Positions 24,020 to 41,752 of a stretch of 64,000 nucleotides of DNA are shown here, piece after piece; position 1 is the first letter of the stretch; every line of letters begins with the position of its first letter. This DNA is from Acidimicrobiia bacterium (lineage in GTDB: Bacteria > Actinomycetota > Acidimicrobiia > Spongiisociales > UBA11373), in contig JBBDMM010000018.1 of NCBI GenBank assembly GCA_040878325.1, positions 1 through 64,000 of the forward strand, written 5' to 3'. A program made the translations under genes and the position numbers. The notes below the pieces were generated by a model. The model had not been told where the DNA came from. It made no database searches and saw only the letters and a program-made list of their open reading frames with translations.

Positions 24020-24594
24020 GTCCCGCGGCCGAGGAGGTCGTCGACGAACTTGGGGAGGGTGAGGACGCCGATCCCGATCGTGAACCACACCAGCGTGTCG
24101 TCAGGGGCAATACCCCACAATGTCGTCCATCCTTCGTTGGCCCACAGAAGGCTGAAGAGGAAGAATGAGAGGATGCCGAGGGCGGCACCTACCGCGGCCC
24201 GGAAGGCCACTGCGCCGAGCGCAATGACCGGCAGCACGACTGCAACCCCCACCGGCCATATCACGAGCGCGGCTCCGCCGGTGACCCCGAGACCTTTCCC
24301 ACCACGGAAGCCGAACCACGGGTTGAGCACCTGCCCGGCCACCGCGGCCACCGCCGCCGCCACGGCGGTCGAGTCACCCCCCTGGGCCAGCCCGAAAATC
24401 GCCGCCCCGGCGCCTTTGAGCAGATCGAGGAGCAGGATCGTCACTGCCGCCGCCCGCCCGACCACGCGGAGGGCGTTGGCGGTCCCTGGATTGCCAGTAC
24501 CGGCCGTCCGCAGGTCGACGCCCCGGAGTCTTCCGACGAGGTCGGCGGTGGGGATGCTGCCGATGAGGTAACCGAGGAGCAGCGCCCAGGTCAT
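24016..24594 (-). CDS. plsY: Glycerol-3-phosphate acyltransferase PlsY
   Basis: GYLIGSIP, GTGNPGTANALR, DLLKG, FRGGKG. Confidence 0.9.
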   Translation of the reverse strand: MTWALLLGYLIGSIPTADLVGRLRGVDLRTAGTGNPGTANALRVVGRAAAVTILLLDLLKGAGAAIFGLAQGGDSTAVAAAVAAVAGQVLNPWFGFRGGKGLGVTGGAALVIWPVGVAVVLPVIALGAVAFRAAVGAALGILSFFLFSLLWANEGWTTLWGIAPDDTLVWFTIGIGVLTLPKFVDDLLGRGT

Positions 24595-27500
24595 GCGTTG
24601 GCCGCCAGCCATGCAGTGCCGGGTTCGCAGAACCGGTTGAAGTCGCAGTTGCGGCATGCCGCCGACGGGGCGGCCGGAAACACGTCGCCCGTGGCCACCC
24701 CGACGAGTTCGGCGAGATGAGTGCGGGCACCCGCGAGCCACTCTCGGTCGACGACCTCCGACTGCTCGACGATGGCGTCACCGCCGAGGTAGGCGAAAGT
24801 CACCCGGGTCTTGTCGGGGGCCCGACCTCCGCTGAACCCCGCTTCCTCGGCGGCGACTGCGTAGGCCTCCAGCTGAACACGGCGCGCCGGATCGTCGCTC
24901 GGCCTACCGGACTTGAAGTCGACGACCTCCCACGACCCGGGCTCATCCTCGTAGACGGCGTCGATACGGCCGGCGACCCTCACCCCTTCGACCAGCAGGT
25001 CGAACGGGGCCTCTACGAGCAGCGGCAGGCGGTCGGCGAAGCGGGAGGCGAGGAACTTGTCGTATGCCGAGGTGACCGGCCCCTCGTATCCGTCGACGGC
25101 GTCGTAGAAGGTCTCGTCGGCCTCGTCGAACGCCACCGTGCCCCGGTTGTGGAGCTCGATCTTTCGGTGGACCTCGACCCCGCGTCGGGCCGCAGGCGTG
25201 GGCTTGCGAGGCAGGCGCTCGACCTCGGTCCAGTAGAAGCGGAGAGGGCAGCCGGCGAGGGTGACCAGGCCGGTGACCGAAGTGCGAAACGGCGGGTCTG
25301 TGGGTGATGTGTCGCCTGGGGTGGGCAAGCCGTCGAGCTTGAGCTGAAGCTGGTCCACTGCCGCATCGTATGCCACGCTCACCCCCGCCTCCTTGGCCAG
25401 ATTGCGCACGGTCGAACGGTCGGTGACCGCGGTGGCCAATGCCGACCGCCAGCCATCGGCGAAGAGCGGATCGGGCTCGGCGGCGCGCTCGGAGTCGAAA
25501 CGCAGGGTGACGGGCGGATCGCCCGGCTCCTCGCAGCGACCGGGAGCCGGATTGGCCAGTTGGTCGATCACCGCAAACAGCTCGCTCCGCTCCTTGGCCG
25601 TCTTCTCGGTGTACCAGAAGGCCCCGGTGGCGATGAGGACGTCCCGGGCTCGGGTCACTGCGACATAGGCGGTGCGCCACTCCTGATCGGAATGCGCCCC
25701 CAGCAACGCCGCCTTGCGTTCGTCGGGATCCTCGCCGAGATGAGGGAGGTCAGAGGCGTCTAGCCGCAACTCGCGCGGCATCACCTCGGGTTTGGAGCGG
25801 GGGTCTTCGTAGCTTCGTATCCCGGACGGGAAGGTGCCCTTGCAGAGCGCGGGGAGGAACACCGCCGGCCACTCCAGGCCTTTGGCCCGATGGACCGTTA
25901 TGAGGACCACCGCATCCTCGGAGCTGATGCGGGCGGTATCGAGTTCGTCGGAGGTGTTTTCGTCTTGGAGCACCTCGAGGTGCTCCAAGAACGCCTGCAG
26001 CGAAGGGGCGCCTTCGAGCGGGCTCCACTCCTCGGCGAGGTCGAGGAACCGGTAGAGGTTGAGGCGGGCTGACAGGCGGGCGGCACCATCGAGGGCATCG
26101 ACCTCGGGCCAGGCGCCGGTACGGTCGAGCACCCGCCGGCTCAGTTCCACCAGGCTCACCCCCTGGGCGATCTCGAGCAGATCCCGGTAGCGGGAACGGA
26201 ACCCTTCCAGGCGGCGGCGGGCTTCGGGGGAGAGGCCATCGACGGACTCGAGGTCGTCGATCGCCTCGAGGATCGCCCAGCCGATCGGCGAATCCTCGTC
26301 GCGGGGCCGCGAGCGGGCGCGTACCCAGGCGGCGAGTGGGGCGAGATCCCCGAGTCCGAGCCGATAGGAGGCGCCGAGCAGCAACCTGATGAGGGCGGGG
26401 GCATCGTCAGGCTTGCCGAGGATCCGTAACCATGCGTGCAGATCGGCCACCTCGGGCACCTCGAGTAGTCCGCCGAGCGACGCCACCTCCACCGGGATAC
26501 CGCGGTGCTCCAGTGCTTCGCGCACCAGACCCATCTGGCGGTGCTTGCGAAACAGCACGGCGATGTCACTCCACGCCAGGCCGCCCTCGTGGAGCCATTC
26601 GGCCTCGGCGGCGATCCAGCGAGCCTCCTCGACCGCCGAGTGGAGCCAGTGGGTGCGCACACTGCCCTCGGGAGCATTCGGGCGCGGATTCAGCCTGTCC
26701 AGCGGGCTGCGCGTGACGATCCGGCCGCGCACCGCGTTGGCGACATCGATGATCGACACGGCCGAGCGCCAGTTGGTGGACAGGTCGAGCGATGGCGACG
26801 GCTCTCCGGATGCCAGCGGGAAGTGTTCGGGGAATCGGTTGAAGTTGGCGGGCGATGCTCCGCGCCATTCGTAGATCGTCTGGTCGGAGTCGCCCACCGC
26901 GGTCACCGGGAAGCCGCCCCCGAAGATTGCCCGCAGCATCTCGCGCTGCCCGGGGTTCGTGTCCTGATACTCATCGAGCAGGACGACGCGGTAGCGGTCG
27001 CGTACCCGGGCGGCCACCTCGGGCACTTCGGTGAGCAGCCGGTGAGCCCGGACCACGAGGTCGGCATAGTCGAGGACGCCGAGGCGGTCCTTGCGCGCTT
27101 GATAATCGGCGATGACCTCGACCAACTCGAGTCGGGGGCCATCGACCGCGGCGTCGCCAGTGAGGTGCTCTCGGACGAGATCGACGGCCGCCAGGTGATC
27201 GCCGATCGAAGACGACAGCGTCACCAACTCGGCGACCCGACTCCCGGGAATCGTCAGGTCGAGGTGGGTTCGTGGCTTTGCCCCGAGGGAGTCGCGCAGC
27301 AGCTGGCGGACATACCCCGGCGTTATCACCTGGACCCCACGGGGCACCCCCACCATCGGGCCGAACTCGCGCAGCAGACCATGGGCGAAGCCGTGGTAGG
27401 TGGCGACCTCCACCTCGCGTCCATGTGCGGCCATTTCCGGTAGGTACTCCCGCAGCCGCGATGCCAGCTCTCCCGCCGCCTTGTGGGTGAAGGTGATCCC

Positions 27501-27653
27501 GAGCGCCTGTTCCGGTTCGAGGCCATTCTCCCGCACCAGGTGGGCGAGACGTAGGGCCATCGTGGTCGTCTTGCCGGTGCCGGCGCCGGCGGTGACCCGG
27601 ACGGGTTCGAGCGGATGCTCGATGATCTTCTGCTGCTCGGCCGTGGGCTTCAT
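24591..27653 (-). CDS. adnB: AdnB-like UvrD helicase with C-terminal PD-(D/E)XK nuclease
   Basis: AGAGTGKT, LDEYQD, VGDSDQTIYEWRGA, TVHRAKGLEW, YVAVTRA, GRIDAVY..VVDFKSG; real start ATG 27653. Confidence 0.88.
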   Translation of the reverse strand: MKPTAEQQKIIEHPLEPVRVTAGAGTGKTTTMALRLAHLVRENGLEPEQALGITFTHKAAGELASRLREYLPEMAAHGREVEVATYHGFAHGLLREFGPMVGVPRGVQVITPGYVRQLLRDSLGAKPRTHLDLTIPGSRVAELVTLSSSIGDHLAAVDLVREHLTGDAAVDGPRLELVEVIADYQARKDRLGVLDYADLVVRAHRLLTEVPEVAARVRDRYRVVLLDEYQDTNPGQREMLRAIFGGGFPVTAVGDSDQTIYEWRGASPANFNRFPEHFPLASGEPSPSLDLSTNWRSAVSIIDVANAVRGRIVTRSPLDRLNPRPNAPEGSVRTHWLHSAVEEARWIAAEAEWLHEGGLAWSDIAVLFRKHRQMGLVREALEHRGIPVEVASLGGLLEVPEVADLHAWLRILGKPDDAPALIRLLLGASYRLGLGDLAPLAAWVRARSRPRDEDSPIGWAILEAIDDLESVDGLSPEARRRLEGFRSRYRDLLEIAQGVSLVELSRRVLDRTGAWPEVDALDGAARLSARLNLYRFLDLAEEWSPLEGAPSLQAFLEHLEVLQDENTSDELDTARISSEDAVVLITVHRAKGLEWPAVFLPALCKGTFPSGIRSYEDPRSKPEVMPRELRLDASDLPHLGEDPDERKAALLGAHSDQEWRTAYVAVTRARDVLIATGAFWYTEKTAKERSELFAVIDQLANPAPGRCEEPGDPPVTLRFDSERAAEPDPLFADGWRSALATAVTDRSTVRNLAKEAGVSVAYDAAVDQLQLKLDGLPTPGDTSPTDPPFRTSVTGLVTLAGCPLRFYWTEVERLPRKPTPAARRGVEVHRKIELHNRGTVAFDEADETFYDAVDGYEGPVTSAYDKFLASRFADRLPLLVEAPFDLLVEGVRVAGRIDAVYEDEPGSWEVVDFKSGRPSDDPARRVQLEAYAVAAEEAGFSGGRAPDKTRVTFAYLGGDAIVEQSEVVDREWLAGARTHLAELVGVATGDVFPAAPSAACRNCDFNRFCEPGTAWLAANA

Positions 27654-30583
27654 GAGGCGAATGCCTCCCGGCCCTCGGGCCATTCGGGGCATACGGAGCG
27701 GACGGCGCATCCATCGCAAGCAGGCCCGGGGATGGGGGTCCAGTCTTCGCCGAAAATTCCTCGCTGCGCGTCGGCCATCGCTGTTTCGACCAGAGGGAGG
27801 TTGGCGAGATCGAACCTGCGGGTGGTGACGCTCTTGGCCCTGGTGGCCGGGAACCACAATTCGGCGCCGCCCACCGGGTCGTCGGATGAGTCGGTGGCGA
27901 GGGCATAGAAGCCCAACTGGACCGACTGGGCTGCCGCGGGCACGCCGGGCACTGTGGTGCCGGTCTTGTAGTCGATGATCCAACGGCCATCGGGCCGGCG
28001 CTCGATCCGGTCGACCCGACCCGACCAGGTGACGCCGTCGACCTCGTGGGTGACCCGCTGCTCCAGGCTCACGGCGGGACCCTGGCCCGGCCAGGCCTCG
28101 TAGAGCTTGGTGGCGATCCGCACCGCCCGTGCCTTCCACGCCTCGGCCCATGCCTCGGAGCCGAAGGCCACGGGGTCGAACTCCTCGTCGAGGATCCGCA
28201 AGGCAGTCGCCAGGTCGGCGTGGTCGGCCCCTTGCTTGCGAGCGCCTTCCTCCGCAAGCTCGAAGACACGGTGGAGCACCGATCCGAGTTCCTGGTACAC
28301 CGAGCCGCCGTCGTCGACGTGGAGCAACCGGCTGAACACATACTTCCGGGGGCACGAGATGTAGGCGTCGGCGGCGCTCGGCGAGAGCGACATCCCGGGG
28401 GAGACCAGCCCATGGTCGGGACCTCGATCGAGGATCCCGGCGAACTCTGATGGGGGCCGGGGGTGCCACTCGGCTTCGTCGGTGAGGGCCGCCAGAGCGG
28501 CAAGCCGGGTCGCCGCAGGGAGCAGCGGGTCGCGCACCTGTCGCCGCAGCCAGGCCTCGGCCTCGAGCGGTGTGGTGGGGTCGACCCAGGGCGGCGGCGG
28601 CTGTGAAGCCTCCTCCATCGAGGACCCCGCCACGAGGGGGAGCACCCGGCTCGGATTACCCGAGGTGCCCTCGTTGGGGGCGACCGTGCAGGTGAAGACC
28701 ACCCGCAGGCGGGCACGACACATGGCGGTGTAAACGAGCCGCATTTCCTCCTGCAGCCGGAACCGCAGGTAGCCGGCATCGTCCTCACCCTGGTTGGGCG
28801 ACAGATGGCGGGCGCCGAGCAGCGAGTCGCGTGTGCGCAGGTCGGGGAGCACCCCTTCGCGGGCGTCGGCGACGATGACCACGTCGAACTCCAACCCCTT
28901 GGCCTGGTGGAGCGTGGTGAGGGCGACGCGGTCGACGCCGTGCTCCCGGTACTCGAGGAGGGGTTGTGCCTCGAAGTCCTCGCTGTCGACCACCGCTGCG
29001 TAGTCGACGAGCGAGGCGCGTGGGTTGCGTTCGCGCAGCCGGTCGAGGGCCTGGGCGAACGAGGCGAGCGCTGCCCGGTCGTCGGACCGGGCCGGTTCGG
29101 CGACAACTCGTTCGAAATGGGGGAGCCGCGTCCACAGCTCCCAGAACCCGTCGGCGGCGGGCTGTTTCGTCGCCCAGTCGCTGATCTTGAGGAAGGGGAC
29201 GAGTGGGGCCGCCGCCGGGCTGCCGGTCACCGCGGTCAACCAATCGTCCCGCATCGCGATCCGCTCCAGGTCGCGGGCCGCCGACAGGGTGAGGCCGACC
29301 ATCGGGCCGAGCAGCACCCGGCGCAGCGAATTGGAGCGTTCGGGCTCGGGCCGGGCGACGGCGGCGACCAGATCGAGGACCGGGCGGATGGCGGGGTGAT
29401 CGACGAGCCGGGCGTCGGGGGGGTCGTGGGGAATCCGGCGGCGGTCGAGGGCCCGGGACAGCTCGGGGAGGAAGCGCCGCTTCGAGCGCACCACCACCGC
29501 CATGCGTAGATAGGGGATGTTGTCGCGAAGGTGGACTCGCTGCAGCTCGGAGGCGATCCACTCCGCTTCATTGGACGCCTGGTCGAAGGCGTAGGTCTCC
29601 ACCGAGCCATCCCCCGGGGCGGGCACCACCGGGCCGGCCGCTCCCGGCAGGCCTGCCCCCGCCGTAACTCGCACCGCGGCGTCGAGGATCGCCCGGGGTA
29701 CCCGGAATGAGGTGGTGAGGACTATGCGCCGTGCCGGTTCGCCGTCGGCGCCTCGAAACCGTTCGGGGAAGGCGGCGACATTCGACAGCTCGGCGCCCCG
29801 GAACGAGTAGATCGACTGATAGGGATCGCCCGCGGCCGTGACATTTCCGTGCGGCTGGCAGATTCGCTCGACCATGCGCGCCTGGGCAACGGTCGTGTCC
29901 TGATACTCGTCGACGAGGACGTACTGAAACGCCGCCGCGATCGCTTCGCGTACCGACGGTGCCTCCAGCAGACGGACCGCCTCGGCCTGGAGGGTGCCGT
30001 AGTCGATGCGGTCGCGTTCGAGCAGCGCGACGCGGTACCTGCGGAAGAAGGCGGGGAGCGCCCGCCAGTCAGCCCGGCCCCTGGCGGCGATCTCGTCGGG
30101 CCCCATCAGCCGCTCGGATGCCCGTTGCATGAAATCGGTGACCTCGTCGGCGAAGCTGCGCGAACCGAGCATCGTGCGGAAGGGCAGCGGCCAGTCGCTC
30201 GCGTCCTCGGCGGCGAGCAACTCCGAGATCAACGCCACATGCTCGGGGCCGGTGAGGATCTGGGGGGCGGTTGCCCAGTCGCCGGCAGATCCGTGTGCTT
30301 CGACCACCCGCATCGCCAGCGCGTGGAAAGTCATGGCCGGGACGACAGTGAGCGACCGCTCGATCCCGGCGACGACTCGGGAGCGGAGCTCGGCTGCACC
30401 ACGTCGGGAGAATGACAGCAGGAGCACCTGTTCCGGGGCGACGCCCGAGGCGATCAGATGGCGCGCCCGGCGCGCCAGGAACTCGGTCTTGCCGGCTCCC
30501 GGCCCGGCGACCACCAACTGAGGGCCCTCGGTATCGGCAATCGCCGCATCCCAGCCCTCCGGCTCTACAAGCAGTTCACGCAC
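27650..30583 (-). CDS. adnA: AdnA-like UvrD helicase with C-terminal PD-(D/E)XK nuclease
   Basis: AGPGAGKT, VDEYQD, GDPYQSIYSFRGA, HQAKGLEF, GRVDRIE..IIDYKTG; start GTG 30583 inferred. Confidence 0.88.
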   Translation of the reverse strand: MRELLVEPEGWDAAIADTEGPQLVVAGPGAGKTEFLARRARHLIASGVAPEQVLLLSFSRRGAAELRSRVVAGIERSLTVVPAMTFHALAMRVVEAHGSAGDWATAPQILTGPEHVALISELLAAEDASDWPLPFRTMLGSRSFADEVTDFMQRASERLMGPDEIAARGRADWRALPAFFRRYRVALLERDRIDYGTLQAEAVRLLEAPSVREAIAAAFQYVLVDEYQDTTVAQARMVERICQPHGNVTAAGDPYQSIYSFRGAELSNVAAFPERFRGADGEPARRIVLTTSFRVPRAILDAAVRVTAGAGLPGAAGPVVPAPGDGSVETYAFDQASNEAEWIASELQRVHLRDNIPYLRMAVVVRSKRRFLPELSRALDRRRIPHDPPDARLVDHPAIRPVLDLVAAVARPEPERSNSLRRVLLGPMVGLTLSAARDLERIAMRDDWLTAVTGSPAAAPLVPFLKISDWATKQPAADGFWELWTRLPHFERVVAEPARSDDRAALASFAQALDRLRERNPRASLVDYAAVVDSEDFEAQPLLEYREHGVDRVALTTLHQAKGLEFDVVIVADAREGVLPDLRTRDSLLGARHLSPNQGEDDAGYLRFRLQEEMRLVYTAMCRARLRVVFTCTVAPNEGTSGNPSRVLPLVAGSSMEEASQPPPPWVDPTTPLEAEAWLRRQVRDPLLPAATRLAALAALTDEAEWHPRPPSEFAGILDRGPDHGLVSPGMSLSPSAADAYISCPRKYVFSRLLHVDDGGSVYQELGSVLHRVFELAEEGARKQGADHADLATALRILDEEFDPVAFGSEAWAEAWKARAVRIATKLYEAWPGQGPAVSLEQRVTHEVDGVTWSGRVDRIERRPDGRWIIDYKTGTTVPGVPAAAQSVQLGFYALATDSSDDPVGGAELWFPATRAKSVTTRRFDLANLPLVETAMADAQRGIFGEDWTPIPGPACDGCAVRSVCPEWPEGREAFAS

Positions 30584-30589
30584 GATGTG

Positions 30590-30611
30590 AAGGTAACGGT
30601 TAGGTGTGACA
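30590..30611 (-). promoter_or_regulatory. PafBC/RecA-NDp-like promoter of adnAB
   Basis: Minus strand TGTCAC-N10-TACCTT, 6 nt before GTG. Confidence 0.65.
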
Positions 30612-30612
30612 C

Positions 30613-30660
30613 GCGGGGGCCCTTCGCTTCGCTCGGCCCCCGCAATTCGCAATAACGCAA
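30613..30660. repeat. REP-like palindrome with CGCAA(T) heptamer tail
   Basis: GCGGGGGCC CTTCGCTTCGCTC GGCCCCCGC AATT; related copies at 38788, 41815, 43569, 60664. Confidence 0.65.
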
Positions 30661-30699
30661 GAACGGGTGATCGCACTCGACGGGGTCAGGTCGGATCTT

Positions 30700-33374: not shown

Positions 33375-33396
33375 ACTATACGTCACCCGACTGACA
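33375..33396 (-). promoter_or_regulatory. PafBC/RecA-NDp-like promoter of the RecB-family nuclease
   Basis: Minus strand TGTCAG-N10-TATAGT, 8 nt before ATG. Confidence 0.75.
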
Positions 33397-34579
33397 CAGA
33401 TGTAGTTCGGAGCTGCTTGCGGGGTCCGATGTCGCCTTCCAGGAGGCTGAAGACGAGCGACCCGACCGTCACCCAAACGGCGGCGATGAGGAACATCGAC
33501 GAGTAGCCGAACCAGGTCACCAGGGCCCCGAACATCGGACCGCCGATGAGGGCCCCCATGTCGAACAGGCCGGTGAAGATCGCCGACGCGGACCCCCGGT
33601 CGGTGGAGGCAGCCCGGGTGAACGCCAGCGAGTACAGGATTGGGAACGCATAGGCGTGCCCCGCTCCGCAGAACGCTCCGGCCAGCAGAATCGATCCGCC
33701 GTCGCTGGCCGTCGCCAGCAGGACGAAACCGGTGGCGAAGACCAACATCGCCGGGTACAGCACTCGCTTGGGGCCGATCTTGTCCGGCAGCCATCCACCG
33801 ACGAGCCGCAACGACATCGCGGTGCCGGCATAGGCAGCGAAGAAGCCGGCGACGGTCCCGATCCCCGTCTCATCCACGAACGTGCGCAGGAAGGTGAAGT
33901 AGGCGGTCAACGACAGGGCGAATACCAGGGTGAGCCACCACAGCGGGCGGAGGTTGGGCTGCTTCAGGGGGCGCAAGAAGGACACCGCCCCGTCCTTGCC
34001 CATGGGAACGCACGATTCGGGAATCCGGGTGGAGAGCGCCAGTCCGATCACGCTGAGGCCGAGGGAAGTCAGGAAGAGGCCGTCGAAGTCCCAACGATCG
34101 AGCACGAACTCGCCGAGCACTCCGCCCAGCGCGATCGGTAGTAGCCCTGACACTCCGAAAAGGGCGAGGCCCTGGGTCCGCTTCCTTTCGGGAACCAGGT
34201 CGGCGGCGATCGTGTGGATGGCAGTGAACGCCAGCGCCACCCCGAAGCCATGGATGATCCGGATGGTGTAGAGCCACGGTCCGAGCGACGTCACCGTGAG
34301 GTAGAGGCCGAGGACGCAGACATTCACCGCGCCGCCGAGCAACAGCACCGGCCGCCGGCCGCGCCGGTCGAGTTCCCGGCCGAGGAGGGGGCGGGCCGCC
34401 AGTGCGCTGAGCGCCGTCGCCGCGACCACCAACCCGATCTCGACCTTGCTCGCCCCCACCCCCTCGAGGAACCGGGGGAAGTGGACGAACAGAAAGAAGG
34501 CGAGGCCCGACACGAGGCTTACCAGCCACGCGGCCACGAAGTGGGGGGTGAGGAGGCGGTCCATCGCGGCGCGGGACAT
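33383..34579 (-). CDS. MFS transporter
   Basis: About 12 TM; G..LDRRGRR motif A, D.VP..KRTQG, G.LPDKIG; start 34579 or 34564. Confidence 0.92.
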   Translation of the reverse strand: MSRAAMDRLLTPHFVAAWLVSLVSGLAFFLFVHFPRFLEGVGASKVEIGLVVAATALSALAARPLLGRELDRRGRRPVLLLGGAVNVCVLGLYLTVTSLGPWLYTIRIIHGFGVALAFTAIHTIAADLVPERKRTQGLALFGVSGLLPIALGGVLGEFVLDRWDFDGLFLTSLGLSVIGLALSTRIPESCVPMGKDGAVSFLRPLKQPNLRPLWWLTLVFALSLTAYFTFLRTFVDETGIGTVAGFFAAYAGTAMSLRLVGGWLPDKIGPKRVLYPAMLVFATGFVLLATASDGGSILLAGAFCGAGHAYAFPILYSLAFTRAASTDRGSASAIFTGLFDMGALIGGPMFGALVTWFGYSSMFLIAAVWVTVGSLVFSLLEGDIGPRKQLRTTSVSVG

Positions 34580-34608
34580 TAGAACTGCCGCACGCCACCG
34601 GAATCCCG

Positions 34609-34683
34609 CGCGAAAACTCGGGTAGGCACGCGAAAACGAGATAGCAGTTTCGGTTGCCCGCGTCGTGGGCAAGGTCGTATGGT
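34609..34683 (+). promoter_or_regulatory. Promoter of candidate ncRNA-1 with upstream CGCGAAAA direct repeat
   Basis: CGCGAAAA at 34609 and 34629, ATAGC 34641, TTGCCC 34654, 18 bp, TATGGT 34678. Confidence 0.7.
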
Positions 34684-34689
34684 GCCCCC

Positions 34690-34959
34690 AGTTCTTCCCG
34701 AGGATCCGAAAGGAAACACGGGAGGCGGCCCCGGGGACCACCCCGCAAGGGGTCGCCGGAGAGGGTCTTCGGGCTCACTTCGGCGCCACGGGGCCACGGC
34801 CCACCGCTGGGCTTCGGTCCAGCAGGAGGGTGCCGGGCGGTGGCAACACCGGTCGGTTCCCCCTGGGGAGCAGCCCGCAAGGGTTTGCTCAACGGGGGGA
34901 CATGGAGCCCCGAGAGGGCTGCGGCTTCGGCCAAAGCTTTCTCGGGGTTCCACCTTTTT
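34690..34959 (+). ncRNA. Candidate structured ncRNA-1 (~270 nt), family unrecognised
   Basis: Seven stems capped by GNRA or C(UUCG)G, many G-U pairs on the + strand, promoter upstream, 18-bp hairpin plus TTTTT at the 3' end. Confidence 0.8.
34903..34959 (+). terminator. 3' hairpin / intrinsic terminator of ncRNA-1
   Basis: TGGAGCCCCGAGAGGGCT pairs with AGCTTTCTCGGGGTTCCA, then CCTTTTT. Confidence 0.75.
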
Positions 34960-34961
34960 GG

Positions 34962-35022
34962 AGTCTCCAGTCTCCAGTCTCTCCAGTCTCCAGATTCCAG
35001 TCTCCAGTGACTGGAGACTGGA
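34962..35022. repeat. Heptamer repeat (AGTCTCC)n with inverse, separating the two ncRNA units
   Basis: Seen directly. Confidence 0.9.
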
Positions 35023-35028
35023 ATTGCC

Positions 35029-35102
35029 CGCGAAAACTCCGGCTGAGACGCGAAATCCATATAGCGTTCTGGCTTGCGCTCGGTGGGGGTGGCACGTACT
35101 GT
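35029..35102 (+). promoter_or_regulatory. Promoter of candidate ncRNA-2, paralogous to 34609-34683
   Basis: CGCGAAAA 35029, CGCGAAAT 35049, ATAGC 35061, TTGCGC 35074, 17 bp, TACTGT 35097. Confidence 0.7.
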
Positions 35103-35109
35103 CCCACTT

Positions 35110-35346
35110 GTCCAAGCAGCGATGCGGGGATGCCAAGAGCCGGTAACGGCAGGCGGCGGCTTCCGACCTAGCTCCTTCGGGAGGGTCGCATCGGCCGAAA
35201 GGTACGGTGCGGTCGCCGGGCCGGCTTTGACACCGAACTTCGGTTCGAGGTCAGGGACAGGAGCGATTCGCAAGGAGCGCTTCGATCGGAACAACCCCGA
35301 GAGGGTGGAGGCTTCGGCCAAGACTCCCTCGGGGTTTTCCGCGTTC
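35110..35346 (+). ncRNA. Candidate structured ncRNA-2 (~240 nt), family unrecognised
   Basis: Six stems capped by GNRA or C(UUCG)G; 3' hairpin homologous to that of ncRNA-1. Confidence 0.75.
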
Positions 35347-35492
35347 TGGGGGCGAACTCCATCGAATCTGCGCCGTAGCAATCGGTCGATGCCGCCGGGG
35401 CGATCATCCCGGGAGGCTTCTCTATGCGCTCAGTCTGACATTCCGGCCCGCCGGCCCGTCACCAGGCCCCTGCCCGCGCCTACTCTTGGCAC

Positions 35493-36110
35493 ATGTCCTA
35501 CCCCGAAAAGTTTCTGACCGAGGGCGAGTCCGTAGTCCGGGAGTTCCGCCCGCATTGGCGACTGCTCTTCATCCCATTCGCGTGGACGCTGCTGTTCGCC
35601 GCGCTGATCTTCCTCACCTGGCGTTACCCGCCCGACAACAGCACCTTCGACTGGGCCGTGACCGGAATCGTTCTCCTGGCATTCCTGAAGTTGGGCCTCT
35701 ACCCCTTCATTGCCTGGTGGTTCACCCACTACATAGTGACCAACGAGCGCATCATCCGGCGCAGCGGGATCCTCTCCCGCGCCGGCACGGAGATCCCGCT
35801 TGAGAACATCAACCACATGTCGTTCTCGCAGTCGATCCTCGAGCGGATTCTGCGCTCCGGCGACCTGCTGATCGAGTCGGCCGGCGAGAACGCCCAGTCG
35901 AACTTCAACGACATCCCCCAGCCTGAGGCGTTCCAGAGCCTCGTCTACCGCCTGCGCGAACTGCGGGCGAAGAGCCTGGGGAGGGACGGCATCGAGGAGA
36001 CCGACACGGTGGCCCAGTTGGAGCGATTTGGCGCACTCCTCAAGGAGGGCCTGATCACCCAGGACGAGTACGACCGCCAGAAGGCAAAACTCCTCCGCGA
36101 CCAGACCTAA
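35493..36110 (+). CDS. Membrane protein with bacterial PH (bPH_2) domain and C-terminal SHOCT
   Basis: GE.V...RPHW, two TM, Y.VTNERII.R.G, G.IT.DEY..QKA.LL. Confidence 0.88.
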   Translation: MSYPEKFLTEGESVVREFRPHWRLLFIPFAWTLLFAALIFLTWRYPPDNSTFDWAVTGIVLLAFLKLGLYPFIAWWFTHYIVTNERIIRRSGILSRAGTEIPLENINHMSFSQSILERILRSGDLLIESAGENAQSNFNDIPQPEAFQSLVYRLRELRAKSLGRDGIEETDTVAQLERFGALLKEGLITQDEYDRQKAKLLRDQT

Positions 36111-38869: not shown

Positions 38870-39658
38870 GTGCTCTTGGACGGCAAGCGGCTGCTGATCA
38901 CCGGGGTGCTCACTGACGACTCGATTGCGTGGCACTCGGCCCGGATCGCCCAGGAGCAGGGCGCCTCGATCGTCCTCACCGGCTTCGGGCGGGGGATGAG
39001 CCTCACGGAGCGGTCGGCCAAGCGCCTCCCCGACCCGCCCGACGTGATCGAACTCGACATCAACGACCCGGCCCACATGGAGGCCCTGGTCGCCGACCTC
39101 GACAAGCGGTGGGGGTCCGTCGACGGCGCGCTCCATGCCATCGCCTTTGCCCCGGAGGATGCCCTCGGGGGCCGCTTCCTCACGACCCCGGCGGAGAGTG
39201 CTTCGACCGCGTTTCTAACTTCGGCGTTCTCGTACAAGACCCTCGCCGTCGGACTGCTGCCGCTCATGCAGAAGGCCGGGGGCGGCGCGCTGGTCACCCT
39301 CGACTTCGACAACACCCAGGCGTGGCCCGCCTATGACTGGATGGGGGTCGCCAAGGCGGCGCTGGTGGCGGTGACCCGGTACCTCGCTCGCGACCTGGGC
39401 CAGCACGGCATTCGGGTGAATGCGGTATCGGCCGGCCCGTTGGGGACCGTGGCCGCCAAGTCGATCCCCGGGTTCGCCAAGTTCCAAGAAGTCTGGGCCG
39501 AACGGGCGCCCCTCACCTGGGATGTCGGCGACCCGGAGCCGGTTGCCCGGATGATCGGTGTCCTGCTCAGTGACTGGGCGCCGATGACGACCGGCGAGGT
39601 AGTGCACGTCGACGGCGGGTTTCACGCCATCGCTGCCGGCGGAACCGGCGAGTCCTAG
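38870..39658 (+). CDS. fabI: Enoyl-ACP reductase FabI (InhA-like)
   Basis: LITGV..D.SIA, HAIAFAP, YDWMGVAKAAL, SAGPL, TTGE.VHVDGG. Confidence 0.95.
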   Translation: MLLDGKRLLITGVLTDDSIAWHSARIAQEQGASIVLTGFGRGMSLTERSAKRLPDPPDVIELDINDPAHMEALVADLDKRWGSVDGALHAIAFAPEDALGGRFLTTPAESASTAFLTSAFSYKTLAVGLLPLMQKAGGGALVTLDFDNTQAWPAYDWMGVAKAALVAVTRYLARDLGQHGIRVNAVSAGPLGTVAAKSIPGFAKFQEVWAERAPLTWDVGDPEPVARMIGVLLSDWAPMTTGEVVHVDGGFHAIAAGGTGES

Positions 39659-40707
39659 GAGTCGGCTTCCGCGGGAAGCTCGAGGACGAACGTTGCCCCT
39701 CCACCAGGAGTGGCGTGGTGGCTCAACTTGGCGCCGACGGCGGAGGCCAAGCCCCCGGCGATCCGTAAGCCGAGGCCGAGCCCCGTTTCGGATTGGTGGT
39801 CCCCGGAGAACGGATCGAGGGCAACGATCGGCGGCAGTCCCGGGCCGTGGTCGGTGACCTCGACGAGAGCGCCCGACCCTGACGCCTCGATGACCACTGC
39901 CGGTCGGTCTCCGTGGCGGACGGCGTTGTCGACCAGGTTGGTGACGATGCGGCGGAGATGGTCCTCGTCGGTGTCGACCTTGGGGATGTGTCCTACGGCG
40001 CGAACGTCGACTCCGGCCGCCCCCGGCACGTCGGCAACGGCTTGCTCCACGACCTCCACCACGTCGGTGAGTTGCGGGCGGATCGGCAGGCGACCCCCAT
40101 TGATCTTGGTGGCGACGAGCAGGTCCTCGACCAGATGGCGGAGGCGGGAAGCGCCCTCGCGCACCGAGATCTGTAGCGAGTCGGCCTTGGGGTCTGCCGG
40201 GTCGAGGCGTTCGAGGGTTTGCAGTGCTCCGACGATCGTGGTCAGGGGGGCCCGCAGCTCGTGGCTCACGTGGGCGACGAACTCGTCCTTGAGAGCGGCG
40301 GATCGGATTGCCTTCTGGGTGGCTGCAGCCAGCGCGGCCATGTCGATGCCAAGCGCGGCGATCTCGGCCAGGGTTTCGTGATCAGAGGCCGGATCCGCGC
40401 CGACCACCACCAGGCTGGCGGGCGAGGGGAGCGCTTCGGCGGGCAGGGGCACGATCACGGTGTTCGAAGGATCGCTCTGGATCGCGGCCGAGGCGCTGGG
40501 GGAGAGCGGGGCCAGGTCGTGGCCGTCACGGTGCACTGCGACTACTGCGCCGCCGGCGACGATCGCCACGCTGGAAGCGCCGGTTACCGCCGCGATCGCC
40601 CCGGCGATGGCTCGCGCCGCCTCGACCGGATTGGTATGACCGCGGCTCTCAGCAGCAACCACGGATGTGGCCCGGTGACCATTGAACCCCAAGGGTCGTC
40701 GATACAC
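39655..40707 (-). CDS. Cytoplasmic sensor histidine kinase (start uncertain)
   Basis: H-box VSHELRAPLT, N-box NLVDNAVRH, DHGPG, GLGL. Confidence 0.82.
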   Translation of the reverse strand: MYRRPLGFNGHRATSVVAAESRGHTNPVEAARAIAGAIAAVTGASSVAIVAGGAVVAVHRDGHDLAPLSPSASAAIQSDPSNTVIVPLPAEALPSPASLVVVGADPASDHETLAEIAALGIDMAALAAATQKAIRSAALKDEFVAHVSHELRAPLTTIVGALQTLERLDPADPKADSLQISVREGASRLRHLVEDLLVATKINGGRLPIRPQLTDVVEVVEQAVADVPGAAGVDVRAVGHIPKVDTDEDHLRRIVTNLVDNAVRHGDRPAVVIEASGSGALVEVTDHGPGLPPIVALDPFSGDHQSETGLGLGLRIAGGLASAVGAKLSHHATPGGGATFVLELPAEADS

Positions 40708-40741
40708 TTCGGCAGGCACGCTCACGGCAGGATCTCCAAAT

Positions 40742-41752
40742 ATGGCTCGAGTAGCCCTCTTCTTCGGCGGACGTTCCGAGGAACATGAGGTTTCGTGCGT
40801 TTCGGCAGTTTCGACCCTCCAGGCGCTGGAGAGCCGCGGCCATGCCGTTACTGCCGTGGGAATCGACCGCGACGGCATCTGGCACCTCGCCGACCCGGCG
40901 ACCCGGCCGTTGAGCGCCGAGGGGCCGCACGCATCCCTCGAGGTCCCTGGTGGCCGCCTCTTGGCCGATGGGCTTGCCATCGAGATCGATGTTGCCTTTC
41001 CCGTGCTGCACGGCCCTTTCGGAGAGGACGGGACGATCCAGGGGTTGTTCGAGATGGCGTCGCTGCCCTATGTCGGGTCAGGTGTGCTGGGATCGGCCGT
41101 GGCCATGGACAAGGATGTGGCGAACCGACTCTGCCGGGATGCCGGGCTGGCGATTGCCGACTACGTCGTCGTGCGCAGGTCCGCCTACCTCGATGATCCC
41201 TCAGCGGTGGTGGGTGGCGTCGCCGACGACCTCGGCTTCCCGGTCTTCGTCAAGCCCGCCAACCTGGGTTCATCGGTGGGGATCTCACGCGCCGACGATC
41301 ACGGGAGCCTCAAGGACGCCATCGACGACGCCCTCCGTCACGGGAGCAAGGTGCTTGTCGAGAAGGAGGTCAACGGACGCGAGATCGAGGTGGCGGTGCT
41401 CGAGGGGCCTCGCGCTTCGGTACCGGGGGAGATCGTCGTCAAGGACGGCTGGTACACGTACGACGCCAAGTATCGGGACGACGCCACCGAATTGGTCGTC
41501 CCGGCCAACCTGCACGAGTCCGAGGCGGCAATAGTCCGGGCCATGGCATGCAAGGTGTTCGAAGTGCTCGAATGCCGCGGCCTCGCCCGGGTCGATTTCT
41601 TCTACGAGGCCGACGGACGCGGGTTCCTGGTGAACGAGCTGAACACCATGCCCGGATTCACCCCCAAGTCGATGTTCCCGATGATGTGGGCCGCGACGGG
41701 GATGTCGTACGCCGAACTATGCGACGAACTGGTAAGCCTGGCGCTTTCTTAG
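40742..41752 (+). CDS. ddl: D-alanine--D-alanine ligase
   Basis: GGRSEEHEVS, HGPFGEDG, KPANLGSSVG, NELNTMPG. Confidence 0.96.
   Translation: MARVALFFGGRSEEHEVSCVSAVSTLQALESRGHAVTAVGIDRDGIWHLADPATRPLSAEGPHASLEVPGGRLLADGLAIEIDVAFPVLHGPFGEDGTIQGLFEMASLPYVGSGVLGSAVAMDKDVANRLCRDAGLAIADYVVVRRSAYLDDPSAVVGGVADDLGFPVFVKPANLGSSVGISRADDHGSLKDAIDDALRHGSKVLVEKEVNGREIEVAVLEGPRASVPGEIVVKDGWYTYDAKYRDDATELVVPANLHESEAAIVRAMACKVFEVLECRGLARVDFFYEADGRGFLVNELNTMPGFTPKSMFPMMWAATGMSYAELCDELVSLALS

Follow-up and report, generated by a model that had tools for sequence, protein, structure and literature searches.

Does the stretch at positions 34690..34959 (plus strand) of contig JBBDMM010000018.1 from an Acidimicrobiia bacterium (assembly GCA_040878325.1) encode an independent noncoding RNA (ncRNA), and, if it does, by what means might that RNA act? 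The stretch, called gene 1 below, lies in a window of 64,000 nucleotides (nt), by which we mean the whole stretch of DNA analysed, and the genome comprises 2.21 Mb in 18 contigs (98.9% complete, 67% GC). A first-pass annotation of the window had read gene 1 as an independently transcribed ncRNA, and this reading is supported by the present analysis. Fold, loops and covariation delimit an RNA of ~265-270 nt ('type 1'), and gene 1 is the first of two adjacent RNA genes with a common type of promoter and terminator, a pairing that was absent from the first-pass annotation. We hold it very probable that gene 1 is a genuine, independent ncRNA and represents a new family; direct results cover its fold, covariation, expression cassette, uniqueness in the genome, phyletic spread and synteny.

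Fold of gene 1 and covariation of its helices

Gene 1 is composed of six structural units with seven tetraloop-capped hairpins, all on the plus strand: H1 (34694-34725; GAAA loop), a three-way junction domain (34727-34795; GCAA and UUCG hairpins), H3 (34799-34831; UUCG loop), H4 (34832-34857; GCAA loop), H5 (34858-34900; GCAA loop), and a terminal stem of 18 bp (34903-34952) capped by GGC-UUCG-GCC, followed by a U5 tail (34955-34959). Every helix listed in the first-pass annotation was present at its place and in the minimum free energy (MFE) fold. The MFE of the plus strand was -176.6 kcal/mol (z -8.20), a value equalled by none of 200 dinucleotide shuffles (mean, -130.4 +/- 5.6 kcal/mol; n = 200). 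The reverse complement folded less well (-136.9 kcal/mol, z -3.27), and thus the argument from G-U pairs for an RNA on the plus strand holds. The loops are, in order, GAAA, GCAA, UUCG, UUCG, GCAA, GCAA and UUCG; the claim that every loop is GNRA or UUCG is therefore true of 7/7, compared with a mean of 0.145 (maximum, 2) GNRA/UUCG-capped hairpins in the 200 shuffles.

The only unpaired runs of >=4 nt (probability >0.7) were the seven tetraloops and the U tail, which argues against a seed-pairing small RNA (sRNA), and both the 5' and the 3' end are buried in helices. A trans-acting base-pairing sRNA regulating mRNAs would be in keeping with a stand-alone gene that has its own promoter and terminator, as many sRNAs do, and tandem paralogues are common in that group; however, the accessible stretches of gene 1 are no longer than the 4-nt tetraloops, GNRA and UUCG loops are closed and make poor pairing platforms, no Hfq was found in the genome, and the bodies of these RNAs diverge while promoter and terminator stay, a poor fit to a conserved seed. 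We consider that such an sRNA is very improbable here.

The alignment of gene 1 orthologues (alignment A2; 17 sequences, which represent 8 genera of the family plus one Acidimicrobiia metagenome-assembled genome (MAG)) yielded, with RNAalifold, 68 pairs, 33 of which showed at least one compensatory double change. Standard pairs filled 94.2% of the cells of this structure, compared with 36.5-61.9% when the 3' partners were slid by 1-3 columns, and the 33 double-change pairs compare with 7-14 in the slid controls. Column shuffling reached the observed value on none of five measures (0/500), a control inflated by the kinship of the sequences, which leaves the slid control unaffected. The consensus contains 11 local helices, at least one compensatory pair being present in 10/11; the exceptions are invariant or one-sided positions. 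The covariation in homologues that had been suggested as a check is thus present. The three-way junction is the best-conserved part of the type-1 body: helices 2-4 of the alignment are 94-98% paired with compensatory changes present, and the junction shows 89% BLAST identity to another genus (query 103-201).

A shared cassette and a second RNA gene

Upstream of gene 1, the box CGCGAAAAC stands twice on the plus strand, at 34609..34617 (centre ~-77 from the predicted start) and, 20 bp past it, at 34629..34637 (centre ~-57). The core promoter follows at 34654..34683 (plus strand; -35 TTGCCC at 34654-34659, 18-bp spacer, -10 TATGGT at 34678-34683), from which the start of the transcript is predicted at ~34690. 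The second gene has the same arrangement on the plus strand, with boxes assigned from the sequence and the genome-wide pattern (CGCGAAAAC at 35029-35037 and CGCGAAATC at 35049-35057) and a core promoter at 35074..35102 (-35 TTGCGC, 17-bp spacer, -10 TACTGT). The boxes have the form CGCGAAA(A/T)C, and their spacing is exactly 20 bp in both genes. The pair CGCGAAA-N13-CGCGAAA occurs twice in the 2.21-Mb genome, both times at the RNA locus; it is conserved upstream of homologues, both boxes being at least 80% conserved in the consensus of 101 promoters. The core promoter of gene 1 aligns with the TTGAC(G/C)-N17/18-TAC.TT of relatives, and both genes show the feature proposed for the family, in which such a core is preceded by two CGCGAAA boxes with a spacing of 20-21 bp. 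The profile of the 101 promoters matched two sites only in the genome (E 5.2e-16 and 1.1e-14; next E 0.093). The rRNA promoter of the genome (TTGACG-N17-TACAGT) has a like -35 and -10 and no boxes; the core promoter therefore looks like the housekeeping type, and the boxes are an addition to it. They probably bind a dedicated activator. A literature search for the CGCGAAA box motif returned no paper on it, only primer sequences. A dispersed heptamer array, (GGCGAAA/GGCGAAG)n, distinct from that in the spacer described below, accounted for 9/11 loose matches in the promoter-box scan, at sites outside the window (contig C10:4805-4852, C17:23265-23291, C9:6615-6641 and others of this genome, G000).

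The other end of the cassette is the terminal hairpin with its U tail (34903..34959, plus strand), the core of which, CCCCGAGAGGG..GGCUUCGGCC..CUCGGGG, lies at 34908-34947. This hairpin was modelled as R1, a covariance model with which an evenly drawn sample of the class was searched; gene 1 scored 71.8 bits. The family form CCCCGAGAGGG-N4-GGCUUCGGCC-N4-CU(Y)(Y)CUCGGGG is found at 34908-34947 and again at 35295-35334, and the core has two copies in the 2.21-Mb genome, both at the RNA locus and each followed by a U-rich tail. In the alignment of 85 terminal hairpins, 81% of residues per column were identical, and the tail was usually UUUC(U/C)CGCGU; one genus has a variant hairpin, the stem of which shows a double change from G-C to U-G. 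The sequence of the hairpin is thus conserved although compensatory changes would be free. By its form the hairpin is intrinsic-terminator-like, and termination there is predicted.

The second gene (gene 2, or 'type 2'; 35109..35345, plus strand, ~235 nt) is supported by fold, covariation and R1 match. Its unit lies ~60 bp 3' of gene 1, its fold has z -3.4, and 25 of its 70 consensus pairs show compensatory changes (16 sequences). It ends in the same hairpin as gene 1 (35295-35334, plus strand; R1, 75.1 bits). The bodies of the two genes are unalike, and the flanks of both align.

Between the genes, the spacer (34962..35024) contains a heptamer array, (AGTCTCC)n, with a period of 7 and 6.4 copies, and an inverted copy that could form a hairpin. 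There are 37 arrays of this type across the genome, and similar arrays match relatives by BLAST; the array looks like a dispersed REP-like repeat outside both RNAs. In relatives of the same genus the gap between gene 1 and gene 2 is ~740-1100 nt instead of ~60. In one of them (G001) the extra spacer (locus L004:1860-2600) holds tandem and short periodic repeats with heptamers of the GCGGGTA/GCCCGCT type, as well as a repeat unit of >100 nt and an N run, and no convincing open reading frame (ORF). Insertion of repeats seems to have a hot spot in this spacer.

A non-functional origin of gene 1, either as a REP- or MITE-like DNA repeat or as part of a protein-coding stretch, has to be weighed against these data. 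A true dispersed repeat does adjoin gene 1, the upstream CGCGAAA and the downstream UUUC(U/C)CGCG loosely resemble inverted ends, and long ORFs cross the region, including one of 168 aa at 34665-35171 in this 67% GC genome. However, the box pair and the hairpin have two copies each per genome at a single syntenic locus, as opposed to the scatter of a REP-like repeat, and relatives have 1-3 real copies, again at one locus; gene 1 itself is present once in the genome, where its one further match is the terminator of gene 2; the ORFs run across both genes and the spacer, which is ~740-1100 nt longer in relatives of the same genus; and alignment A2 contains compensatory changes together with non-triplet indels. 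Because indels of 1-2 nt are frequent, the long ORFs crossing the locus are not genes, and the earlier statement that no credible protein is encoded stands. A non-functional origin is extremely improbable.

Spread, neighbours and expression of the RNA family

A pattern scan of GTDB genomes for the hairpin core gave at least 129 stretches, mostly titled as Acidimicrobiia or Acidimicrobiaceae MAGs. The loci fetched contained 101 distinct box pairs, and the conserved hairpin followed 218-511 nt later in 89/101, a count biased by the fetching of loci by similarity or by hairpin pattern; the 12 box pairs without it were mostly at locus ends or had the variant hairpin of one genus. Measured from promoter to hairpin, the RNAs are 144 to 436 nt long and form several length classes: a short class of ~145 nt, type 2 of ~232 nt, type 1 of ~250-280 nt, and long forms in which GGGAAACC-type hairpins recur. 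The short class has an invariant GGGGGCCCGCUUUCCC element. Its members, e.g. those at L072:1318+ and L052, belong to other families and stand in the position of gene 1, and the invariant GGGGGCCCGCUUUCCCGG carries a 6-nt loop; the 6-nt loop CCCGCU was found in 25/89 RNAs and is the sole recurrent hairpin loop other than tetraloops. The GGGGGCCCGCUUUCCCGG element is a candidate for a specific binding site. In genus g14 (G025 and G033; L016 and L017) both tandem genes have the type-2 body, and the presence of a type-2 paralogue in the first position implies that bodies are swappable or duplicable within the cassette. The family is set by the cassette of promoter and terminator, not by the body, and this wider family is a second point missing from the first-pass annotation.

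Over the 89 RNAs, GNRA or UUCG loops cap 445/576 predicted hairpins, a loop make-up typical of large structural RNAs. This, and the fact that the two RNAs are always encoded together, would suit an RNA-only architecture in which tertiary contacts, homo- or hetero-oligomers or another role needs no protein partner. Against such an architecture, the RNAs are small, and the predicted duplex of gene 1 with gene 2 (-190.9 kcal/mol) is not above chance, compared with -187.5 +/- 8.0 kcal/mol for 200 shuffles; we regard it as improbable.

The locus was matched by BLAST in 55/61 genomes when 60 relatives and the genome itself were considered, including 36/36 genomes of the same family; the matches were 0/2 in each of families f3, f5 and f10 of the same order (for f5 the two are G040 and G051, both unpublished and used for this count alone). 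R1 matched the genome and 35/36 other genomes of the same order at 48-82 bits. Most of these genomes had a pair of copies separated by a few hundred bases, and the maximum was three real copies. In other orders of the class it matched 3/114 genomes, weakly (30-40 bits), and in the phylum sample it matched 4/4 genomes of the same order, 0/6 other genomes of the class and 1/140 of other classes (weak). As far as searched, the RNA family is thus confined to one order of Acidimicrobiia. Records labelled 'uncultured Acidobacteriota' with the full cassette were also noted (L038, L046, L057, L072-L074, L097, L101 and L106-L108), several of which also have the syntenic PD-(D/E)XK gene (70-78% identity to that of this genome) or bPH_2 gene (~42% identity); they may be mislabelled Acidimicrobiia. 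Seven Rhodobacteraceae loci (L033, L037, L039, L066, L068, L078 and L089) have one hairpin-core match with a 5-nt gap and no CGCGAAA boxes, and these are probably an unrelated conserved element or chance matches.

The RNA locus is flanked by an MFS transporter gene, divergent and upstream (33383..34567, minus strand; Pfam MFS_1 E 2.5e-47), of which the 394-aa form aligns over its full length in relatives, and by a conserved downstream gene for a bPH_2 and SHOCT protein (35493..36110, plus strand; Pfam bPH_2 E 8.8e-19, SHOCT E 4.4e-7). Neighbours from the window were detected by tblastn in 67/158 fetched loci (own locus excluded), many loci being too short to show any: bPH_2/SHOCT in 38, PD-(D/E)XK nuclease in 37, MFS in 25 and AMP-binding enzyme in 23. 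The syntenic order is GDH, PD-(D/E)XK, (MFS), RNA, RNA, bPH_2, AMP-binding. Two adjoining UvrD-helicase and PD-(D/E)XK genes, AdnAB-like, lie 4-10 kb upstream of the RNA locus (24591-30676, minus strand), and a histidine kinase that seems to be an orphan occupies 39655-40980 (minus strand). Among the wider neighbours (AdnAB-like helicase-nucleases, GDH, SDR, the orphan histidine kinase and Ddl) no regulator candidate was found.

Parts of the stretch were present in 21 sequencing runs, and the entire stretch in run X1 only, which may be the source sample; the small shares are no evidence of habitat. Four runs of RNA type were compared with the region, the metatranscriptome libraries coming from two studies. 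RNA-library contigs of close relatives, 95-100% alike, cover 35125-35344, that is, the body and hairpin of gene 2: that of X19 has 190 nt (35130-35295; mean word depth, 364; adapter at one end), that of X21 153 nt (35125-35277), and that of X20 102 nt (35241-35312). No RNA-library contig covers the protein genes on either side. These data hint at abundant RNAs from the relatives of gene 2. For the body of gene 1, the sole covering contig is that of X17 (350 nt, 34629-34961), from a library whose RNA nature is guessed, and lack of cover is uninformative here; because this contig begins upstream of the predicted start, it may be DNA.

One RNA-library contig (record 10, from a relative) extends beyond the gene 2 hairpin, and a bPH_2 gene of the same direction lies directly downstream in 38/158 fetched loci from across the order. 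Both observations would suit a role in cis, in which the locus serves the bPH_2/SHOCT gene as leader or regulator, or is an insulator with strong transcription and incidental RNA. However, a strong hairpin with a U-rich tail ends each RNA; what comes after gene 1 is gene 2 and not an ORF; selection on the RNA helices is strong; and the arrangement varies among relatives. In G060 (C1:21636-22237) the terminal hairpins are on opposite strands, ~500 nt apart, so that the orientation of the two RNA genes can differ, and in G038 (family f3) a minus-strand coding region, instead of the RNA locus, lies upstream of the bPH_2 gene. A cis element is very unlikely.

Possible action and comparison with known RNAs

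As the best explanation we tentatively propose a stable structured RNA pair that acts in trans as a protein-binding decoy or scaffold, since both ends of gene 1 lie in helices and no single strand extends beyond the tetraloops; the chance that this whole statement, mechanism included, is correct we put somewhat below even. Each of the two adjacent genes would be transcribed separately from a sigma-A-type promoter, to which the phased CGCGAAA boxes (~-77 and ~-57) would recruit a dedicated activator. The body consists almost entirely of helices capped by GNRA/UUCG tetraloops, and the sequence-conserved, UUCG-capped hairpin would close the transcript and shield its 3' end, possibly also serving as a sequence-specific handle for a protein. 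The RNA would be abundant and act through its shape, RNA polymerase being one candidate partner. That the gene 1 RNA works by binding protein is, taken by itself, again a view we hold at slightly less than even confidence.

Several points weigh against this explanation. Start site and termination are predictions, as are the transcript ends of both genes and the binding of an activator and of a protein. RNA-library contigs cannot show transcript ends, may include DNA and come from relatives, and kinship, as noted, inflates one of the two covariation controls. A generic consensus scan gave no promoter-like site and one unrelated minus-strand terminator-like site, with neither end of the cassette flagged; the status of promoter and terminator thus rests on their conservation, by which both elements claimed in the first-pass annotation are real. 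No sequence word beyond the tetraloops is common to all body classes (the best 6-mers were CUUCGG in 76/89 and GGCCCG in 58/89), and type 1 therefore shows no evident sponge of the kind that repeats a sequence-specific site. Lastly, CsrA (PF02599), Ro60/TROVE (PF05731) and Hfq were not found in the 98.9% complete genome.

Alternatively, the pair may stand for a bacterial ribonucleoprotein or RNA regulator of a new class, in which a fixed expression cassette (an activator-dependent promoter and a 3' hairpin handle for a dedicated protein) carries a freely evolving body, and which would either supply the missing RNA polymerase-associating RNAs of the lineage or titrate a global regulator. We consider this unlikely; if true, it would open the study of sRNA-based global control in Acidimicrobiia, which are abundant in soils, sediments and waters and hardly cultured. 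The RNA pair offers a handle on the factor that would read the CGCGAAA boxes and on the protein that would read the 3' hairpin or helices, and it lets one ask how RNA polymerase or another global regulator is controlled in a lineage that shows neither 6S nor an Ms1-type locus. The cassette is also a simple signature with which these RNA genes can be annotated in MAGs.

Among known families, nothing in the window reached the gathering score of any Rfam 15 model (4227 models), and the novelty put forward for gene 1 is left standing. Three of the refuting conditions named in the first-pass annotation, a strong Rfam hit, a lack of covariation and many scattered copies, thus all came out in its favour. 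At E<=10, rows for 34400-35700 were at chance level, the best being ctRNA_pGA1 (23.5 bits against a cut-off of 45, at the terminator only); nor was there any gathering-score match, raiA included, in 20 related loci with other body classes. ARAGORN found nothing in 34000-36000. RNase P RNA, tmRNA and SRP RNA score over cut-off elsewhere (C11:68315-68593, C10:249413-249762 and C6:234964-235063, respectively), and since these are on other contigs, gene 1 is none of them. The 6S model (RF00013), which matched 5/14 control genomes, matched nothing at E<=1 anywhere in this one. By structure, 6S was also rejected, because the 11 local helices without a 5'-3' closing stem differ from a long duplex with a large central bubble. 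A literature search found no description of such ncRNAs in Acidimicrobiia.

6S RNA is generally not found in the phylum Actinobacteria (PMC4191392, PMC11077062), for which further, still undiscovered RNA polymerase-associating RNAs have been argued (PMC11077062). Ms1 has a sigma-A-like promoter and a long hairpin with a central bubble that is needed for binding of the RNA polymerase core (PMC4191392), and its synteny comprises an HAD-IB hydrolase and an oxidoreductase with an intergenic region of >300 nt (PMC9130861). Gene 1 was rejected as Ms1 on both counts, being a string of hairpins without a central bubble and lying in a locus that adjoins MFS/PD-(D/E)XK and bPH_2 genes. The one HAD-IB gene of the genome, on another contig, has flanking gaps of ~150-175 nt with no Rfam match there. 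The remark in the first-pass annotation that gene 1 lacks known signatures of RNase P, tmRNA, SRP, 6S and Ms1 thus agrees with our results.

These data bear on a further alternative, namely that both RNAs are the RNA polymerase-associating RNAs of the lineage, non-homologous counterparts of 6S, Ms1 and CoRP. That the genome shows neither 6S nor an Ms1-type locus, with RNase P, tmRNA and SRP RNAs placed elsewhere, makes this attractive, and the two genes recall 6S-1 and 6S-2, which are a paralogous pair. The argument for undiscovered RNAs of this kind (PMC11077062) adds to the attraction, and the promoter is sigma-A-like as in Ms1 (PMC4191392). However, covariation supports a string of local hairpins and not the central-bubble hairpin that Ms1 requires (PMC4191392), and the synteny is unlike that of Ms1; we judge this alternative distinctly unlikely.

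Returning to the protein-binding RNA pair that we prefer, we rate it as a new RNA family with an unusual organisation as a cassette, within the known broad kind of stand-alone structured bacterial RNAs. It is like 6C RNA, a small stand-alone actinobacterial RNA with stable hairpins and C-rich loops, in size class and hairpin stability, but, in contrast to 6C and to base-pairing sRNAs, gene 1 has no C-rich or other open loops and no Rfam match. Y RNA genes are usually adjacent to a Ro60/TROVE gene, and a Y RNA was rejected because no such gene was found in the genome. A sponge of the CsrB/RsmZ type was rejected because there is no CsrA gene and because the loops (GAAA, three GCAA and three UUCG) do not expose GGA. 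The likeness to CsrB, RsmY and RsmZ lies in paralogous sRNA genes with an upstream activator-type element, a terminator and hairpin arrays that vary between lineages, a GacA upstream activating sequence preceding genes of that type; the differences are the closed GNRA/UUCG loops, the lack of a CsrA gene and a different phylum. With the raiA motif of Actinomycetota and Firmicutes, the pair has in common that it is a conserved, covarying, stand-alone RNA of unknown biochemical function (PMC10861870), whereas a promoter and terminator cassette with divergent bodies, and no raiA match in Rfam, sets it apart. The likeness to Ms1, 6S and CoRP is that of a stand-alone structured RNA of ~150-500 nt, the promoter of which is sigma-A-like and the terminator intrinsic (PMC4191392, PMC11077062), from which the pair differs in having no long bubble hairpin, other neighbours, no sequence or Rfam similarity, and two CGCGAAA boxes. 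Although on the features tested the pair belongs to neither group, the logic proposed for it, that of a structured RNA titrating a global machine, would be like that of CsrB/RsmZ or 6S/Ms1.

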